Notes under the pieces: generated by a model | What the model saw: the letters and a program-made list of their open reading frames with translations, nothing else | Told to the model about the DNA's origin: nothing | Databases searched by the model: none | NCBI GenBank assembly: GCA_964016885.1 | Contig: OZ024741.1 | Coordinates: 99,944,001 to 100,008,000 of the forward strand | Source of the DNA: Eledone cirrhosa | Lineage: Eukaryota | Direction of reading: 5' to 3' | DNA length: 64,000 nucleotides | Program-made: the position numbers and the translations under genes | Part shown: piece after piece, positions 11,131 to 62,721 of the stretch | How the letters are laid out: every line of letters starts with the position of its first letter | Position numbering within the stretch: the stretch's first letter is position 1

Positions 11131-11367
11131 TATTTGTATTTAAATATGTATATATATAAATATTCGCGCTAGGGTTTTATATATTTTGATATATATATTA
11201 TCCTTATCGAGCCCTCTTCGGATTTTAGTCGTCACATTTAATAATATTACTATATATATGTATATATATATATATATATAGCGAAGGAAAAGTGGTAAGG
11301 AACCAGGTGGACCATAACAGAATTAGCCGTCGAAACGGCTTGAGCTCAGCCGTCGGGGTCTTACTTA

Positions 11368-11413: not shown

Positions 11414-12346
11414 GTAATAATAATAAATTTGAAGACTAAAATCCAAAGAGGGCTCGATAAGGATAAATATATATCAAATATATAAGAACCGTAGAGCAAA
11501 AATTTATTAAAATAACAGATTAAAGTTTAAGCAAAGAATCGCTGCTTTCACCCTTAACGGGATCTTCTGAAACTAACAAAGTCAATATGTAAACGCAGAA
11601 GTGGATATTTAAAAAAAACTTTGCAACCGGAGGCAGACAGGAAGACGATACTTTGGTTCGTGGAAAAGTTCCCTGGCAAAGAACGGGAAAAAACGAATAT
11701 AATACGTCATTAATAGGAGCGGTGTGTGTATACACGCACACACACACACACATATGTATACGTGCGTGGTTTTGTATACCTATGGCGAGTGTTTTCGCGT
11801 ATACTTGTGTATGTACGTATTTGGATGCGTGTATGTATTTATTTAATTTCAATTACCTCTGTATTTTATTTACTTTATTCTTAACTCTGAAGCCGAGAAT
11901 CATTCGGTTTCCTAGTTAGAATTTTAGTCTACGACTTCAGCTATACCATTTACGTGGTTTTGTCTTTGGGTGCTATTGTTCTCCACGCTCCACATATGAC
12001 GTATTATCTTCGTTTTTTTCCGTTCATTGCCAGAGAACGTCTCTATGAACCACCTAAGAGAACATTAGTCTACGACTTCTTTTATACCATAAACGTGGCT
12101 CTGTCTTTGCGTGTAATTGTTTTTCCCCGCTCCTATTAATGACGTATTATATTCGTTTTTTCCCGTTCTTTGCCAGGGAACGTTTCCACGAACCAAAGTA
12201 TCGTCTTCCTGTCTTCCTCCGGTTGCAACGTTTTTTTAAATATCCACTTCTGCGTTTACAGATTGACTTTGTTAGTTTCAGAAGATCCCGTTAAGGGTGA
12301 AAGCAGCGATTCTTTGCTTAAACTTTAATCTGTTATTTTAATAAAT
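11411..12346. mobile_element. Fold-back element with ~220-bp inverted arms (11503-11722 / 12127-12346), one HHR per arm
   Basis: Near-identical inverted arms. A ~140-bp diverged tandem duplication lies in the spacer/right arm. The minus-strand tail 11502-11411 ends at (TA)n. Confidence 0.75.
12259..12332 (+). ncRNA. Type I hammerhead ribozyme, CAGAAGA core variant (mirror copy at 11516-11589, minus)
   Basis: AGTTT-CAGAAGA-TCCC GTTAA GGGT-GAAA-GCA GCGATTCTT TGC-TT-AAACT; distal stem I extension CAGATTG/TAATCTG. Confidence 0.65.
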
Positions 12347-15802: not shown

Positions 15803-18800
15803 TTTTTCTTTATTAACCACAAGGGTTCACATAAAGTAGACATTAAGGACAGTACAGGAAATACAGGACGGTACAAATGGGCATTTCTGCGTGTAAAAAA
15901 ACAGAGGTTGAAATAAAATAACAAAGAAAAATTCCCCAATAGGGGGGAGACTTCCGAGGGACATTTGTGGAGAAAGCCCATTAAAAGACCACAGTGGCCC
16001 TGACCACCAGGGCAAGTGCCCTCTCCCAGTTTTCCACCTTTAATTTACAGACACATACTCAGAGAAGGCCCATTCATTCGGGCCATACTTGCTTCTCTCA
16101 CCCATCTTTCAACAAAATGCTGGGAAGAGAGCACTTCCCTCTCTACCCTGATTTTCCTTTTCAAATGAAATTTGAAAAAGTTAATCAGGGCATCACCGAA
16201 GAGGTAAGTGCTCGTCTTCAGCCCTTTCAAACGTGTCCACCATACTATCTCTTTCGCCATGGCCACCAGACAGATAAAAACTGCCTGCCCTTCCAGGCTA
16301 AAGGAAGGGGGCGGGGCAATCCTCACGATGGCCTCAGCTGATAGCTGGATCCGTCCTACACGTGACAGCAGGTGTTCGACATAAACCCACAAGTCAGCAA
16401 TGCTCGGACACTGGACGAGTGCGTGCAGGACGGTTTCGTCGCCCTGCGCGCATCTCGGACATGCCCGGCTGACGGCACCTCCATGCCTGTGGAGTTTATC
16501 CCGAACTGGCAAAGCTCCTCGGTAGCACTGCCAGGCCAGGGATTTCTGGAAGTTGTCCATAGGCCCCGGCCCTAAAGTCCTTCCGAAGAGATTGGCCAGT
16601 TGATTTTCGTCGACGCCGAGAGTTTCTCCAAGTACGTCGTCGCTCTTACCCTCCACTAATCCCCTATAGAACGCCAAGGTGGAGTTTCCACCGATCACAT
16701 TGCCCGATTGGTGGAGGGATGTGAGCGCCTGAAGACATTCCAGTCTCCAGGCGCTCCCTCTCGGTCTTCGCTTGACCCAGGACTGCAGCTCCGTCAAGGA
16801 AACGAGCTGGGGAAATACGTGTCTAGCAAACGGCGACCACACCTGATCACCATCGAGGAAGAGGTGGAGATGTCGTAGCCTGAGCGCGTGCCTGCGCATC
16901 ATCAGCCACGGCATGCCCAGCCCTCCACGTAGCGGGTGTTGACAACAGATGGACCGCCTGACCATCGGAGCGCGTCCCTTCCACAAAAAGCGAAAGAGCA
17001 AACGCTCCAGCGCAGTCAGGCGAGGCTTAGGACAAGGTACGACGGTCAGGCGGTAGCAGATGACAGACGCGATGTACGCGTTAGCCACCTCCGCTCGACC
17101 TTTCAGGGATAGCTTCCTCTCCGCCCATTTCTGGGTGAGAGAAGCCACCCTGCTCATCACCTCTTCCCAGTTTTTGTCCGTCTGGAGGTCCGGACCAAAC
17201 CAGACCCCTAGCAATTTAACCGGTCCGTCCGTCCAGCGTCCGACGACGCTGTTGGACGGCATGGACCTGCCTCTCCAGGTGCCGATCTGCAGGCCCACTG
17301 ACTTTTCCTGGTTGATCATTGCTCCTGTCACCGCTTCGTATTCTCCTAGTGTAGTGCCGATCGCCTCGATGTGTTTGGCGTTCGACACCACTACGGTGAC
17401 ATCGTCGGCATATGCTGACACGGATCTTCCGCATCCTAGTTCGCGCGGGACGCCCCTCAATGTCTCCAGTTTGTGCAGTAATGGCTCGAGAGTCAATACG
17501 TACAAGAGAGACGAGAGTGGACATCCTTGGCGGACCGAGCGCATGATGTTGAACGGTTCCGACAGGTGACGGTTCACTCTCACCACAGAGCAGATGTCGC
17601 TGTGCATGGCAGCGATCCAGCCACTGAAGACGGGCCCAAAGCCAGCCGCCCTCAGGTCTGCCGCTAGGTAACGATGGTCGACCCTATCGAAGGCTTTCGA
17701 CTGATCTAAATTGATCAAGGACCCACCCGTGCCAGGTTCCATAGCTACCCTCTCTACGATGTATCGCATGAGGTGGAGGTTGTCGTGGATGGATCTGTCG
17801 GGAATGGCGCATGTCTGCGCCTCTCCCACCAGACCACCAACGACAAGCGCCAACCTCTTTGCTAGCACCTTGGCCAAAATCTTGAACTCTTTGTTTAGCA
17901 GAGTTATGGGCCGGAAATTATCTATGTTATCCCCTTTGTTCGAATCCTTTCACAGCAGTGCCACCGCTCCTCGGCTCACAGAACTGGGAATTCTCACTTG
18001 TTGTTGTTGGTGATGTTTGCACTGGAGTCTCTGTTGCAGCTGCATTTGGTATTGCTGTTGTTGTTGTTAATACTTCCACTGTTGCTGCTGTTTTTGATTT
18101 CCGTGGCGTGGGTATGGGTGTCACGGACCTATCGTTCCTGGTTGCCGCTTGTCCTGTTGCTGGTAGCCGTGGAGCCGGTTTCGGAAGGAGGGTTTTTGTT
18201 TTCCTTTCTCAGGGTCTTCTCGTTGTAGAAGGCCCTGAGGTGAGTCTTCGATCCACAGCGAAAGCATTTCGGGCGTTTGCCCTCAACACTTATGGGCAGT
18301 TGTGTGCCGTTATCGAAGTCTATCACATCCGGGATAGCTTCGATGCACTCCTGGTTGGTTTGGATTAACATCTCAATGGAGGTGCCGACCCAATCTTCTC
18401 TTACTTTTTTCTGTACTTGCAGTACAGTTGTTTTGTCCTCGATTCCGACGAGGACAGACGCGGCCAGCCAAGAAGGAGCCATCCCTGGGGGGGGGGTGGG
18501 GGGGGGGGTGGCAGTTTGACCCTCACCATTTTTTGCCCGCAGTAGGAGGGCACCAACACCATTTCCTCGCTCCTTAGGGTCACTAACGATTGAGCCTTTG
18601 CCTCCTGTGGTGTGGCAAAAAGTACGCCTACGGTGGCATATTTCTTGCCTCGGTGATGTGCGTTTTCCGCTGCCACACAGACCCCAAGGCTTTTTGTATT
18701 TGAGCCTCTGTGGCTCTTTCCACCCTATGGGATTTTGTACTTACTGTACGGTACGTGACCGTACAGTGCTGTTGGGTTTCGAAAAATGTTTCCGCTGCCT

Positions 18801-19933: not shown

Positions 19934-22900
19934 CTACAGACGTATATTCAGAGTGGTCCCGTTCACTCGGACCATTCTCGCTACATTCACCCACCTTTCA
20001 ACAAACTTGCTAGAAAGCAGCACTTGCCTCTCCACCCTGATTTTCCTCTTCAAGTGAAACTTGAAAAAGTTAATCAGGGATTCGCCGAAGAGGAAAGTGT
20101 TTGTCTTTAATCCTTTTAACCTTGTCCACCACACAATCTCTTTCGCCATGGCCACCAGGCAGATGAAAACCGCCTGCCCTTCCTCTTCAAAGGAAGACGG
20201 CGAGACCATCTGCACAATGGACTCAGTCGACAACCGGATCAGTCCCACACGTGACAGCAACTGTTCAACATAGCTCCACAAATCAGCAATGCTCGGGCAC
20301 TGAACGAGTGCGTGCACAACGGTTTCGTCGCTATACGCGCATCTCGGACAGGCTCAGCTGACGGCACTTCCGTGCCTGTAGAGCTTATCTCGAACCGGCA
20401 GCGCTCCCCGGTAGCACTGCCAGGCCAGGGATTTTTGGAAGTTATCCATAGGCCCCGGGCTGAAAGTTCTCCGGAAGAGAGCAAGCAGCTGATCTTCTTC
20501 GACGCCCAGGATCTCTCCGAGAAAGTCGTCGCTCTTCCCCTCCACTAGTCCTCTATAGAGCGCCGAGGTGGATGTTCCACCGATACTGGTGCCCAACTGG
20601 GAGAGGGCAGTGAGCGCCTGGAGAAATTCCAGTTTCCAAGCGCTATCCCTCGGTCTTTTTCTGACCCAGGACTGCAGCTCCGTCAAGGAGACGAGCTGTG
20701 GGAAAATGTGCCTGGCGAACGGCGACCACGCCCGTTCACCATCAAGGAAGCACCAGAGATGTCGCAGCCTCAGCGCATGTTTGAGCATCATCAGCCATGG
20801 CATGCCCAGTCCTCCACGCGACGGGTGTTGACAGCAGATGGATCGTCTGACCATGGGAGCGCGTCCCTTCCACAAAAAGCGGAAGAGGAGGCGCTCCATT
20901 TTGGTGAGAGTTGGGCTGGAGCAAGGGACGACGGTGAGGCGGTAGCAGATGACGGATGCGATGTACACATTCGCCACTTCCACCCGGCCTTTCAGGGACA
21001 GCTTCCTCTCAGCCCATTTCTGGGTGAGGGAGGCTACCGTGCTCGTCACCTCGTTCCAGTTTTTCTCCATCTGGAGGTCCGGTCAGAACCAGACCCCGAG
21101 CAATTTAACCGGTCCGCCCGTCCAACGCCCCACGACGCTGTCGGACGGCATGGACTTGCCTCTCCAGGTGCCTAGCTGCAAGCCCACCGACTTTTCCTGT
21201 TTTATCTTTGCTCCTGTCACCGTTTCGTATTCCTTGAGATCGGTGCCGAGCATCTGGACGTATCTGGTGCTCGACACCACCACGGTGACGTCGTCAGCGT
21301 AAGCCGCCTCGGATTTCATGCAACCTAGTTCGCGTGGGAGGCCCCTCATCGCCCCCAGTATGTGCAGTAACGGCTCGAGAGCCAATACGTACAAGAGGGA
21401 CGAGAGGGGACAACCCTGGCGGACTGAGCGCATGATGCTGAACGGCTGCGACAGGTGATAGTTCACCCTCACAACTGAGCAGATGTCGCTGTACATTGCT
21501 GCGATCCAACGCCTGAAAACGGGCCCGAAACCGGCTGCCTCGAAGACCGCCGCCAGGTACAGATGGTCGACCCTATCGAATGCTTTGGATTGATCCAAGT
21601 TGATCAGGGCCCCACCCTTGCCAGGTTCCTTAACCACTCTCTCTATGATGTATCGCATGAGGTGGAGGTTGTCGTGTATGGATCTGTCCGGGATGGCGCA
21701 TGTCTGCGCCTCTCCCACCAGACCCTTGACGACAAGCGCCAACCTCGTTGCTAACACCTTGGCCAAAATCTTGAACTCTGCGTTTAGCAGAGTTATGGGC
21801 CTGGAATTATCAATAACATCCCCCTTGTTCGGGTCTTTTCTCAGCAGCGCCACTGCTCCCCGGCTCACAAAACTGGGAATGCTCCCGTTCTGCTGCTAGT
21901 TGCAGTAGATGTCTGCCAAGAGGTCACCGAACAAGTCTGGCATAAATGCATAAAGCTCGTAGGGCAGACCATCTAAACCTGGCGATTTACCTCTTGTGCA
22001 GTTAGCCATCGCTTCCCGTATTTCACCGGCTGTTATTGGCTTTTCGCAACACTGTGCTGCGGTCGTCGAGAGCCGAGGCAGTCCGTCGAGGTATGCACTG
22101 AAGTCCATGTCCCGATCCGGGCCGCCGCCGCACCCGAACAGTTCAGCAAAGTCCTGCTGAAAAACTTCACACATCCGCTCGTGTTCAAGCATCACGCACC
22201 CGTTTTGTTCAGACGAAGACCGAATTGTGGCTTTATTGCCACGTCGCGCCTCTGCCACCCGGGCCCATTGGACGGTTTTTGTCCCCTCGTGTTTCAGAGC
22301 ACGCGCTCTAGCTCTGACAACGCTGCCTTCGTGTTTTGCGTTGAAGAATTGGTCGAGTGCCAATCTCGCCGTAAGCACGTCGGTTGCGATACCTGTCCTA
22401 AACGCCTCTTCTAGCTTTCTGACTAGCTCTCCCTCTACTCTATTTTCCTCTATCACTACTCCTTTGCTAAACCTAATCGACTCTACTTTAATTGCCCTTT
22501 TCAGGGCAAACCACCACCTGTTGTTGACGACCGCTCCCGTAAACGCCCGCTTAACTAATACGCTAATCCGGTCTCTGTAGGCATTGCGCGCCGGGAAAGA
22601 CGCGTTCAGCTTCCAGGAACCAGCCCTTGTCTATGAAATCTGTCTATGTCGATCTCACAGATCAGAAATTTGTGGTCTGTATAGTCGACTATTTTAAATT
22701 GTGGACAACTTATACTAGCCTTATCTAGTTCCCTGCAGAATACCCTATCTAGATACGATCTGGATGACCCGATGCAGTTTGTCCATGTCCACATTGGCAC
22801 ATTCGGGTGATCCAGTCGATACCTGTCAGACAGTTCAAAACGTCTGAGCAGGTTGGTGAGGCTCTTGCACCCTCCTCCCCTATCCACTATCCCCACACGA

Positions 22901-23352
22901 TCCCAGTGTGCATCCAAGATACCGTTCCAGTCGCCCACTAACACTAAAGAGCGGGACGTTCCAAGACAGGTCTCTAGACGTCTGAAGAAATCTGGCCGCC
23001 CTGCCCCTGTTGGGGCGTAGACGGCTACTAGCCTGAAAGCATTGCCTGCGTTGCCGGTCACGTCCAGCACCACCGACTTACCTTCTGGGTCCAGGAAGAT
23101 GGCCCGTATCACGAGATCCAAGCCTCTCCGAAAACGGACGGCAACCCCTCCCCCCAATCCTGAACGGCTGGGAGATGCGTATACATCGTAGCCGCCGAAG
23201 ATCGGTGCGAAGGCCTGTGCCTCGGAGATTCTGGTTTCACTGATGGCCACCACATCTATGTTTAGTGACCTGAGGTCATTGAACAGGTGACCCTGCTTCC
23301 AAGATGACCCCAGGCCACGTGCATTTATACTTCCTATTCTGAGTACAGCCAT
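19934..23352 (-). pseudogene. Tx1 ORF2 (APE endonuclease, RT, CCHC) with stops and frameshifts
   Basis: SINARGL, ISETR, GDWN, SYLDRV, TDHK (APE); KSPGLDG, AYADDV (RT); split across ORFs 22606-23388, 21896-22456, 21083-21868, 20354-21070, 19934-20317. Confidence 0.9.
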
Positions 23353-23384
23353 GTTGGATGAGAAACGGGGAAAATGAGAAAGGG

Positions 23385-25429
23385 TCACTTACCTTGTTCG
23401 TGTGGTGAAGGGACAGTAGAACCGTCCCTTTCGCTGGTCATGGGTGTTTCCAAGAGGATGTCAGTGTATATCCTCTTGGTAACCGACCCTCTGAAGTCTC
23501 CAACTGCGTTGGGGAATTTTTGTTTTAAAGGTTTATATTGTTCTAATGAGATTTCGATGATGCTTATTTTTGTCGGGAGAGTTCTTGGTGTTGATGGGGT
23601 GTAGTAATTTTTTTCCGTGATGTCTGTGTGCTGATTTATCTATTTTATGAGTTCTTTTTTTGATATGTTTATGGCTGTGTACTTTTTGGGGGGAGGGGTG
23701 ATTTGTTGCCGTTTTCTTCTTGTTGCTGTTTGGTGTGTGTGTCTTGTGTTTGCGTTGTTGGTGTTTGTGGTGGTGTTGCTGCAAGTTTCCTTGCTGCCTT
23801 TACCCCTCTTTGTATGCCTTCGCTTTTGGAGGGTGAATCTAAGGATTTTTTTTTTTGTGGCAGACTGTTTGCCACGTCACTCCCGTCTCAAACTCCATGT
23901 CGGATTCTGTGGCGTCTGGGAGGGGTATGTGCTCCACGGCTGTTGGTGGTGATAGTGGAGCCCTCTTCGGCAATGTTGTTGCTGGTGTAGCTATTTCAAA
24001 TGTAGCTATTGGTGTTGCCGCTATTGATGATGCTGCTTTAGTTATCCGTGGCCTTGGTACGGGTGCTACGGACGTTGCCCTCCTACTCACCGTGGAAGGG
24101 GCTTCTTCGTTTGTTGCATGTCCTGCTCTTGGTAGCAGCGGACCAGGTATTGGAAGGAGAGAAGGAGAGGGGCCCTCTTCGGTGTCTTCTGCGGGCAAAA
24201 GGCCCTGAGGTGACCTTTCGACCCACAGAGATAACATTTTGGCTGTCTTCCTTCTACACTTATAGGGAGTTGGAGTCCTTCCTCAAAGTCTATGATATCG
24301 GGGATAGCTTCGATACATTCCTGGTCAGTTTGTATAAGCATTTGCATGCCTATACTTGACCAGTTCTCTCTCCCTATTTTTTCTACTTGCAGCATGGTCG
24401 CCCTGTTCTCAATTCCAGCAAGGGCAGACGCGGCCAGCCAAGGTATGGGCACGTCGGGTGGGACCTGGGTCACTTTGACCCTCACAATTTTCTGCCCGCA
24501 GTAGGAGGGCACCAAGACTAACTCTTCACTCTTTAGGGTTTCCAAAGAGTGAGACTTTGTTTCCTGGGGGGGGGGGTGAAAAGTACGTCTACTGTGGCTT
24601 ACTTTCTGCCTTGGGTGATGTGAGTTTTACGTGCCCAGACGCACCGCAAGGCCTTTTGGATTTGAGCCTCCGTGGCTCTCTCCACTCGATGTGAGATTTT
24701 GGTTACGGTGCGGTAAGTCACCGTTCGTAGCTGCTGGTCCTTGAAAAAATCGGGTGGAGGTTTCAGGGAAACTCTATTTGCGCTTCTTGTCACCATGGCC
24801 CTTGCGACTGCCATCTCCTCCTCTGTGACTAACACTGTCTCGATATTTCGGGCGACACCTGCAAAAGAAGTGCTCCCTTTTTCAGCAGCGTCACTATTGC
24901 TGGAGATACTGGTCTTACTGGTGGTGCTGAGGTCGCTATTACAGGTATCGGTGTCATTGTTGTTCTTTTCGTGGGTACAGTTGTCGGTGTTGTTTTCGTT
25001 GATACTGTTGCTGCTGTTACTGTTATTGTGGCTGTTGTTATTATTGTTGTTTTTGTTGATAATGTTCCTACTATTATTGTTGTTGTGGCTGTTGTTATTG
25101 TCATTGTTATTGTCGTTCTCGACCTTACCGCTGTTATTTTTGTTATTGTCGTTCTCGACCTTACCGCTGTTATTTTTGTTATTGTCGTTCTCTACTTTAC
25201 CCCTGTTATTTTTGGTGTTGTTGTTGGTGTTATTGTTGGTGTTGTTTGTGTTAGAAATATTTGTTAATTTTAAATCTGTAACAATCTTTTTTTCCTTTGT
25301 AATATTTTCGTTTATATTAACCTCCGCTGGAACGCTGTCTTGTTGACATGTTGATAAAGTCTCCTTCTCTCTGTGTTGTCTGACAGCGCCCTCTCTCTTT
25401 TTTGTGTTATCCATGTTGACATTTTTCAA
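23385..25429 (-). pseudogene. Tx1 ORF1 (gag-like, Asn-rich N-terminus, CCHC knuckle), frameshifted
   Basis: CYLCGSKGHLRAFC; homologous to copy A ORF1; frameshifts at homopolymer runs. Confidence 0.8.
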
Positions 25430-47574: not shown

Positions 47575-49311
47575 AGAATTATCCCACAGGTTCGTTCTAA
47601 TTGCTCTTCTTTGAACTTAAATTTATGGTTTGGTACTTCTGAAGTGATTGGCTGGTTCAACAAATTGAATAATAAAAACAAACTAAAATTTGTTCAATCT
47701 GATATTGCCAGCTACTATTCTTCTATTTCGCCTTCACTTCTCAACAATGCTCTATCTTTCGCATTTAAATATTCTGACATCAGCACAGATGAACTTCACA
47801 TCATTCTCACCGCACGTAAAACCATCCTTGAGTTCAACAATGAATATTGGACCACAGCTGACACCTCTAACAACTCCGACATCACAAGGGGAGCATCCGA
47901 TTCATCCCAATTGACAGATTTAATTGGTATCTTTATTTTGAACTCTTTGAGTCGGAAAATTCCTCAACTTCGCGGTGGAATTTATCGTGACGATGGACTC
48001 TTTACTATCTTAAATTGCAACATAGTTAACCTTAATATTATTAAGAACAATATACGTAATCTCTTTAACCAACATAACCTAAAAATTGAATTTGATAACA
48101 GCATCAAACTAGCTAATTTCATGGATGTATCTCTTAATCTTGACACTGGCCTATATTACCCTTAACATAAAAACAATGAGAACCTAACTTATGTTAATTT
48201 TAAATCTAACCACCCTACTAATATTAAGAATGCTATAGTTAGTAATATTGGAAAAAGAATATCTAACCTATCTTCTTATAAAAACATCTTTGATGCTAAA
48301 GCCAATTACTATAATAACGCGCTTTCTAAAGCCGGCTATCCTGATAAAATCAAATATAATAAAGAAACAAATTCTAGAAGATCTTACAGTAGAATAATTA
48401 ATCATGATCATTCCAATAACTTTAATAAAAGACCTAGATACAAAAACATAATCTGGCATAATGTTCCTTTCTCCATCTCTATTAATAATAATATTCCTAA
48501 ATTATTCTTTAGTGCCTTAAATAAATGCTTCCCTCCCTCACATATCTATAGTAAAATATTTAACAAACACACTATAAAAATTTCCTATTCAACATCCTCC
48601 AACATTTCCAACATTATCTCTAAACACAACAATAAAATACTAAATACTAAATCTCTTCCTTCCAACACTGAATATCTTAATAATAGTAATAGTACTCCCG
48701 ACGTCATTGTAAACTCTAGGCTAATTTCTGCAAACCCAAATACAACGTCAAACACAACTTCGCTAACTGTTCTTAATCCCATTCTAAATCAAAAAACTAT
48801 TATTCCTATCGCAAATAAATTCTCCAATCCAATTCCTTCTATAGATAACACTAGGCCACTCGTTAATAATCTCTCTAATCGCAATGCAATTGCCCTGCTA
48901 AAAATAAATGTCCTCTCAACAACCATTGTTTGATAAAAACTTAATCTACGAATGTAAAGTTATAACTGACACCAATTCCTTCACCTATTTTGGCTCCACT
49001 TCCACCTCCTTTAAAGCTCGTCTTTATAATCATCATTTGTCTTTTAAATACCAACTTAAAATAACCAACACGGCTCTCTCAGAACTGATATGGTCCTTGA
49101 AAGACAACAATATTAAATATAACATCTCTTGAAAAAAGGTTTCTTCTGCTGCTCCATACTTGAACAGTTCTCTATCCAAGACTTGCAATCTCTGCCTAAA
49201 TGAAAAATTTACCATTATATCTAATTTAGATTCTATAATAAATAGACGCACTGACTTGTTTTCTCTCTGCTTGCATAAATTCCACAGAACATTCCATAAA
49301 GTATACAGCTA
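47575..49311 (+). pseudogene. PLE reverse transcriptase plus C-terminal GIY-YIG endonuclease
   Basis: SDIASYYSSI, IYRDDGL, NFMDV, SNHP, CNC..CPL..C, LIYEC..TYFGST..FKARLYNH, CNLCLNEK; in-frame stops at 48163 and 49130 plus frameshifts. Confidence 0.9.
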
Positions 49312-51336: not shown

Positions 51337-51805
51337 TACATATAAATATATATATATATGTATATATATCTATATATAAACGAAAAAAATGAAACGAAAT
51401 TTCATTTCCCACACTAAGTACGGCTGTTATTTAAATATAAGTATGTATACGTACATACATATATGTCTAAAGACGTAAAGTAGTATGTATATATATATAT
51501 ACATACATGCACACATATATATATATCCGTATGGATCATCTGGCAGCAAGGTATACGTTGCTGACGATAGCTAATAAGCTTGAAACTAGTACAGCGTTCC
51601 TTTGTCAGTGTTGAACACACGAGCAACTGTGGTTGCTAGACACTACGGCTTAATACGGGATGTTCGTTTACAAACACATCGAGCATTATAATATATGTTC
51701 GGTGAATCCATACGTACATATATATATATATATAGGTGTGCATGTATGTATATATATATACATACTACTATACGCCTGTATACATATATGTATGTAGTAT
51801 ACATA

Positions 51806-53958: not shown

Positions 53959-54498
<540 letters not shown>

Positions 54499-62131: not shown

Positions 62132-62213
62132 AAATGGGGAGCATATATATATATATATTGTTGCAATATATATACAGATGTGTTGGTATCTGTGTTTCAT
62201 CACTTACATGTTA

Positions 62214-62269
<56 letters not shown>

Positions 62270-62295
62270 GGAGAGAGAGATAGATAGATAAATAT

Positions 62296-62559
62296 ACACG
62301 GGTGTGTATGATTGTGTATAAAAGATTATATTAATAAAAGGAATTCCAACTTTGTCTGATTTACTCGTTTTATTTACAATCCTTTAAAATTTATAATGGT
62401 ATTATAATGAAATAGTATGATAGAATATTAAATGTTAAGTGTTAATTAACACTTAACATTTAATATTCTATCATACCATTTCATTATAATACCATTATAA
62501 ATTTTAAAGGATTGTAAATAAAACGAGTAAATCAGACAAAGTTGGAATTCCTTTTATTA

Positions 62560-62562
<3 letters not shown>
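62296..62562 (-). mobile_element. 234-bp spacerless palindrome (62329-62562) plus tail; same family as 54002
   Basis: Near-perfect symmetry about GTTAA|TTAAC (62445/62446); tail ACACGGGTGTGTATGATTGTGTATA is the reverse complement of 54370-54395. Confidence 0.85.
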
Positions 62563-62599
<37 letters not shown>

Positions 62600-62721
62600 A
62601 TGTGTGTGTATGTACATATATATACAAAGTTAGAGAGAGGGGAAGTGGGAGAGAAAGATACACACAAACACACAGACACACAGACACACAGACACACAAA
62701 CACACACACATATATATATAT

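Follow-up and report, generated by a model that had tools for sequence, protein, structure and literature searches.

Endonuclease-bearing (EN+) Penelope-like elements (PLEs) typically insert in a layout in which an inverted, truncated pLTR is accompanied by a 30-40 nt tail on one side only (PMC8557442, PMC3846280), and self-priming has already been proposed for the palindromes at their junctions (PMC3846280, PMC8557442). Two start sites of the RT have been identified as the origin of the PLE tail (PMC11167929), and the linker that joins RT to EN in the Neptune and Nematis clades is Cys-rich, with the pattern CX2-5CxxC (PMC8557442). For the hammerhead ribozymes of PLEs, processing of precursor RNA has been proposed without in vivo evidence (PMC4209133), and their function there is described as unclear (PMC8557442). 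In the one PLE examined in vitro, PAc Poseidon, the protein of which is predicted to be dimeric, cutting proved dispensable and no RNA-seq ends fell at the cut (PMC11167929). In R2, the cut of an HDV-like ribozyme sets the 5′ junction of the insertion (PMC3774820); snap-back after full-length cDNA synthesis and fusions of non-coding RNAs at cDNA ends have been described for the same element (PMC11371274).

The family analyzed here, met in a 64-kb window (the whole stretch of Eledone cirrhosa DNA under study), resembles known EN+ PLEs in its RT with a C-terminal GIY-YIG domain, its pLTR with a TATA box and an initiator-like site, its head-to-head pairs of which one arm bears a tail of about 30 nt, and its microsatellite targets (PMC3846280, PMC8557442). 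It differs in having two peaks of 5′ ends, one at the likely RNA start and one at the predicted ribozyme cut, whereas those accounts, in the portions available, map no junctions to the cut (PMC3846280, PMC8557442). With the minimal dimer-type hammerheads of PLEs it shares a type I core within the pLTR, a short stem I, a palindromic stem III, and a second motif nearby on the opposite strand, but stem II, long and with G10.1-C11.1 in the described examples, has here three pairs and a U.U (PMC4209133). A U.U at 10.1/11.1 is noted elsewhere as a tolerated variant (PMC3088659). As in PAc Poseidon, two RT starts would define the tail, both strands would be nicked and extended, and the targets are AT-rich; unlike in PAc Poseidon, a minority of the copies in the genome, some of them full-length, begins at the cut (PMC11167929). 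Compared with R2, both the retroelement class and the ribozyme are different, and cutting, the main route in R2, is a minor one here (PMC3774820, PMC11371274).

The element and its layout are thus already known; the less usual feature is the 5′-end peak at the predicted cut. The literature searched, main texts readable without subscription, contained no study that maps the genomic ends of PLEs to a hammerhead cut. If the reading is right, the peak would be an indirect sign that the ribozyme works in vivo, and cut RNA would be a minor but real template of transposition. End mapping of this kind is applicable to every PLE family for which a long-read genome exists, so that the hammerhead question becomes directly testable.

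A Penelope-like palindrome at 62 kb

The initial annotation had described a spacerless palindrome at 62 kb, and we confirm it as genuine. Between the two arms, 118 of 119 positions pair without any spacer about a symmetry axis between window positions 62445 and 62446 (GTTAA/TTAAC). Likewise, with the predicted cut as placed in a copy at 54 kb, the 62-kb copy lacks the hammerhead core and contains only sequence 3′ of that cut, and its center is, as had been claimed, one base short of GTT-AATTG-AAC. On the family ruler (family position = window position - 54177), the hammerhead core begins at 35 and the predicted cut lies between T63 and G64. The axis of the 62-kb copy does not lie at 64 but falls within the self-complementary AATT of family 68-71, 4-8 nt downstream of the predicted cut. 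The non-mirrored stretch beside the left arm matches the 3′ end of the 54-kb copy, and family position 187, where the right arm ends, is the shorter of two recurrent 3′ ends (Table 1).

Table 1. Features of the 62-kb palindrome and of the 54-kb reference copy (window coordinates)
Feature	Position	Strand
(TA)n/(GA)n microsatellite flank; probable target of insertion	62200-62291	
One-sided tail, about 30-35 nt, family 188 to ~220	62292-62326	-
Left arm, 3′ part of Penelope-like pLTR, family ~70-188, runs on into tail	62327-62445	-
Junction GTTAATTAAC, axis on AATT (family 68-71)	62441-62450	
Right arm, same segment; ends at family 187, then (TA)n	62446-62564	+
(TA)n/(TG)n microsatellite flank	62565-62620	
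54-kb inverted arm, family 6-187	54000-54177	-
Second hammerhead motif, in the inverted arm of the 54-kb copy; GAAA box mutated	54116-54154	-
54-kb tail-bearing arm, family 1-215	54178-54392	+
Type I minimal hammerhead with mutated core (54212), U.U at 10.1/11.1 of stem II, and palindromic stem III; predicted cut between 54240 and 54241	54207-54245	+

The 54-kb copy had been put forward as the cleavage reference. The predicted cut in it stands, but the copy is itself a head-to-head pair with arms 91% alike, and both of its hammerheads are damaged: the core of the right arm reads CTGGAGA against CTGAAGA in the family, and the box of the left arm reads AAAA against GAAA. The center of this pair lies near what is likely the start site of the element.

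A search of the genome returned 1,182 candidates, and a 19-base anchor has 8,035 matches, corresponding to at least 8,035 arms. Longer copies extend upstream into a frame with a YLDD RT motif, a C-x4-C-x2-C linker, and a GIY-YIG domain, in the single-ORF order RT to GIY-YIG. The copy used for the domain search is broken into frames of 476 and 775 aa, and the latter matches GIY-YIG (E = 3.3e-6) and, slightly below the Pfam cut-off, RVT_1 (E = 2.9e-6). In the complete copies L398, L414, L415, and L416, a pLTR lies on each side of the ORF. Together, the domains of the ORF and the repeat flanking it identify the repeat, at the level of sequence, as the pLTR of an EN+ Penelope-like element. The C-x4-C-x2-C motif precedes the GIY-YIG domain and fits the Cys-rich linker of the Neptune and Nematis clades, so that the linker appears, by this motif, to be of that type.

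The palindromes of the family show the inverted, 5′-truncated pLTR with a tail at one end: exactly one arm bears the tail in 66 of 72 palindromes scored, the arm-cutting rule having passed over 44 of 116 loci. Non-LTR retrozymes are marked by head-to-tail tandem monomers with circular RNA; among short copies of the family seen here, the arrangement is dispersed and head-to-head. The 62-kb palindrome is an ordinary Penelope stub in the known head-to-head layout.

The hammerhead of the family is a minimal type I motif with the CUGANGA core, the GAAA box, and a UH cut site. Its core is intact in 48 of 68 arms scored and is the dominant form among the loci examined. By sequence, stem I is present, stem III is palindromic, and stem II consists of three pairs, with U.U rather than a Watson-Crick pair at 10.1-11.1. 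Other families among the loci examined have the identical architecture with other stem letters. Within this young family, we found no covariation in the hammerhead stems; an Rfam scan of the 64-kb window returned microsatellite noise and no hammerhead match, and the fold of the monomer hammerhead has no extra stability over shuffled sequences (z = -0.46).

Where the arms of the palindromes end

The centers of the palindromes were mapped by the length of the gap between the two occurrences of one anchor (family 79-91), one on each arm. This gap measures 0-30 nt in 42 loci, 31-110 nt in 117, and 111-220 nt in 817, and the classes near the cut and at the start site thus comprise 42 and 817 loci, respectively. 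Among the first 50 listed of the 817, 20 have a gap of 170-171 nt, which places the center at position -9, and one arm reaches -9 to +7 in 27 of 48 parsed loci of the intermediate class. A position-ordered sample of 86 arms gives a similar picture, with 45 arms ending at -10 to +3, 18 extending further upstream, and 6 ending at 62-70. The main peak therefore precedes the predicted hammerhead cut by about 73 nt. A TATA box is found 31 nt before position -9, and of 7 copies in which -9 directly adjoins (TA)n, 4 have an additional G in front of it, as expected if a cap had been copied. The TATA spacing, the extra G, and the pile-up of ends together argue that the main turning point is likely the start of a capped RNA and not the ribozyme cut. 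Junctions at the start site (-9 to +7; L109, L110, L118, L260) often carry short templated repeats of the terminal bases, which look as if they came from repeated annealing and extension.

The initial annotation had named an excess of centers at the cut as support for its model. The map bears the model out in part: a sharp second peak lies there, but the main one, at the likely start site, speaks against it. Scaled to the genome, the number of junctions per base is 0-0.8 at 24-55, 1.55 at 56-61, 6.27 at 62-67, 2.74 at 68-73, and 0.3-2.6 at 82-117, the middle bins being extrapolated from parses of 48 of 117 and 50 of 78 loci and the 74-79 bin being undercounted by design. The profile derives from a gapped parse with 11 hand corrections (indels occur near 120-124), and a subfamily without the anchor is missed near the cut, not downstream of it. 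Junctions also cluster at other natural hairpins (2.6 per base at 106-111, 1.6 at 82-87), and the cut-site peak exceeds the best of these controls by about 2.4-fold. The cut site is the strongest secondary peak of junctions. Within the 42 near-cut loci, the predicted junction occurs in 8 (7 exact, 1 with a substitution), the junction of the 62-kb copy in 7, and a third form, one base shorter, in 5; their flanks are unrelated in the 17 loci shown.

A matched end test, independent in design, compared five sites of similar conservation, each probed by requiring 27 matched bases and, directly after them, two mismatches. The four control sites (59/60, 53/54, 37/38, 94/95) were the analyst's choice. 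Raw matches number 31 at 63/64 and 32, 21, 9, and 17 at the controls, in the order given. After removal of point changes, internal deletions, and arms with a farther-reaching partner, 16 terminal events remain at 63/64 versus 4, 3, 3, and 5 (p ~1e-4), with L338, L360, and the L305/L306 pair reclassified by eye and six further exact hairpins at 63/64 dropped by a filter applied in that search only. The excess sits in two-armed copies (10 versus 1, 1, 1, and 0). Ends that abut non-family DNA are not significantly more frequent at 63/64 than at the controls (6 versus 3, 2, 2, and 5; p = 0.16, computed with 4 for the first control, and 2 of the 6 are really two-armed), and no enrichment is seen there for shorter-arm landings (5 versus 11, 9 or 10, 1, and 5). 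Loci in which both arms end within 5 nt of each other and share no bases number 7 at 62-67, 1 at 24-61, and 9 spread over 82-117. The end test adds 6 more at 62-66, giving about 13, several of which keep the whole loop on both arms.

Ends joined to (TA)n, inspected by eye among the first 100 of 402 matches listed, fall at 62-70 in 8 of 14 simple loci; 1 other lies at 34-58, 2 at 59, and 3 at 74-77. This is a hint only, as AT-rich homology to the target confounds the comparison; overlapping matches inflate the match count, and 2 complex loci were left out.

Several other sources were rejected. Long and short arms are alike at position 95, which speaks against subfamily bias. Among 213 read-through arms, none has lost a T at 65/66, which argues against such a template variant as the source of the shorter junctions. 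Spread of one palindromic master copy is at odds with the flanks and subfamily letters, which differ among loci. Insertions ending at the predicted cut form a minor, sharp class that we judge probably to descend from cleaved RNA.

Telling loci, proposed mechanism, and rival explanations

Single loci extend the class to complete elements. L398 (G000 C1:21,871,400-21,881,399) is a head-to-head pair of complete 4.3-kb elements, about 8.8 kb in total, the center of which is the predicted cut junction. Its arms differ by 4 mismatches in 4,323 bases and carry an identical frame break, the hammerheads at the far ends are intact, the tail is present on one end only, and the flanks are unmirrored; the pair is young. 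The ORF-bearing arm of L414 begins at family 66, and the four ORF-complete copies seen begin at 63-66 (two) or near 96 (one) or read through (one). At a single locus, L320, G64 is the last base of both arms, each joint being uncertain by maybe one base, and 289 nt of antisense 18S rRNA (L320:1529-1817; Rfam E = 1.8e-56) lie between them. This arrangement is as expected of an RT that runs off an RNA end and then jumps. A template jump of this kind, or RNA ligation, likely produced the insert, and the joint is comparable to the extra-template junctions of R2 (PMC11371274). No rRNA was found in 18 other loci checked. At L408 (G000 C4:363,618,000-363,619,800), both arms end at 63 and enclose an element of about 300 nt with terminal inverted repeats, part of which also lies beside L362.

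Arm-to-arm differences amount to 2.1% within loci, and to 1.7% within start-site pairs, compared in both cases with 4.4% between loci, and the subfamily letters shared within a locus point to one template for both arms. Self-priming of the cDNA, as first suggested for the 62-kb copy, fits less well. Strict fold-back of the first strand predicts the tail on the farther-reaching arm, the one that bears the loop, whereas in the 24 decidable loci the tail is on that arm in 11 and on the nearer arm in 13. This symmetry disfavors strict fold-back; the better description is likely that one RNA gave two cDNAs and that these were joined 3′ end to 3′ end.

In the mechanism that we propose, the pLTR promoter would start a capped RNA at -9, and the element protein would nick both strands of a (TA)n tract, where two cDNAs would be primed on opposite target strands, one at 187 and one at the tail end. 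Each cDNA would run to the 5′ end of the RNA, in most copies the cap and sometimes, in roughly 5% of palindromes, a ribozyme-made end at G64. The cDNA 3′ ends might then anneal via the imperfect palindrome 63-75 and be repaired. Two ends at G64 would form a ten-base pairing in which each strand has a single bulge; repair keeping one strand would give the predicted junction in either orientation, and dropping both bulged bases would give the junction of the 62-kb copy. The base missing at the 62-kb center may accordingly reflect loss of the single bulged base of 63-75. The 62-kb palindrome consists of two PLE 3′ ends placed head-to-head, and we count it with the minority class whose ends gather at the cut, probably because the template RNA had been self-cleaved. 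The wider scheme stands only a little above an even chance: here the hammerhead would cut in the germ line, both the short 3′ product and the RNA of the unit from cut to tail would serve as templates, a dimeric enzyme would copy one RNA twice from both nicked strands, and the map of centers would record RNA 5′ ends, both capped and ribozyme-made.

The most serious alternative is a microhomology hot spot without any cleavage, in which cDNAs of uncut RNA, or start-site palindromes losing their middle, resolve at the self-pairing stretch 63-75. That stretch is indeed naturally palindromic apart from a single bulged base, the three near-cut junctions seen most often have 4, 4, and 1 bases in common, other natural hairpins gather junctions too, and single-arm ends are not significantly enriched at the cut. 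The template is common to the arms in all classes, so that arm identity does not discriminate, and the 11:13 tail symmetry is equally expected from central deletion. Stem III, however, contains at 56-63 a perfect palindrome of 8 bases that pairs more strongly (-7.4 kcal/mol, versus -6.1 at 63 and -3.5 at 64) and yet centers only 2 of 48 loci. Nor are shorter-arm landings enriched at the cut. Moreover, in the roughly 13 loci with both arms ending at 62-66, the loop is kept in several and inserted bases intervene, and in L320 rRNA cDNA separates two ends at G64. The weak use of 56-63, these unshared joints, L398, and L320 argue that self-pairing is not the whole explanation of the cut peak, and we consider the hot spot unlikely, though a serious competitor. 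For the 62-kb copy taken singly, central deletion would yield an equal product, so that it may be assigned to either origin and its descent from cleaved RNA is an even call. The notion of a genomic fossil of in vivo cleavage is therefore likely to hold for the near-cut class and is evenly balanced for the copy from which it arose.

Pausing of the RT at a folded, uncut ribozyme (the 3′ strand of stem I at 64-68, or paired stem III from 63), with ends that mark structure rather than cleavage, would suit the spread of ends over 62-72, the start of paired stem III at exactly 63 as read from the sequence, and the use of uncut RNA as the main in vitro substrate of another PLE (PMC11167929). We hold it to be improbable: the helices are weak as well as short, no excess is seen at the 3′ edge of stem II (3 terminal events at 53/54), and a jump to an rRNA fragment in L320 would better suit a physical RNA end. 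Least probable is a fold-back artefact of assembly or of a chimeric read, which the initial annotation had named as a possible refutation. The 62-kb center is bridged by no read and by none of the contig pieces listed; the raw reads are three reduced-representation runs with reads ending at AATT and GAATTC sites, and therefore cannot span an AATT center or display natural ends. Against an artefact stand the one mismatch between the arms, the one-sided tail, the unmirrored and differing flanks, the end of the mirror at a recurrent family position, and the center itself, which is shared by 6 other loci on 6 contigs with unrelated flanks.

Further elements in the window

A second minimal hammerhead family is represented at window positions 51561-51595, with U.U at 10.1/11.1, a palindromic stem III, and other stem letters; its roughly 20 relatives among the loci examined are too few to replicate the end mapping. 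An inverted pair at 11502-11617 and 12231-12346, 99% complementary, carries a hammerhead-like motif with the core CAGAAGA and adjoins a (TA)n-inserted family that also occurs at 11280, 12480, and 36575. Long frames on the minus strand at 16048-17949 and 21086-23388 resemble, by eye, LINE-type endonuclease/RT, and a plus-strand frame at 48166-48930 resembles, by eye, the region following the RT of another Penelope-like element.
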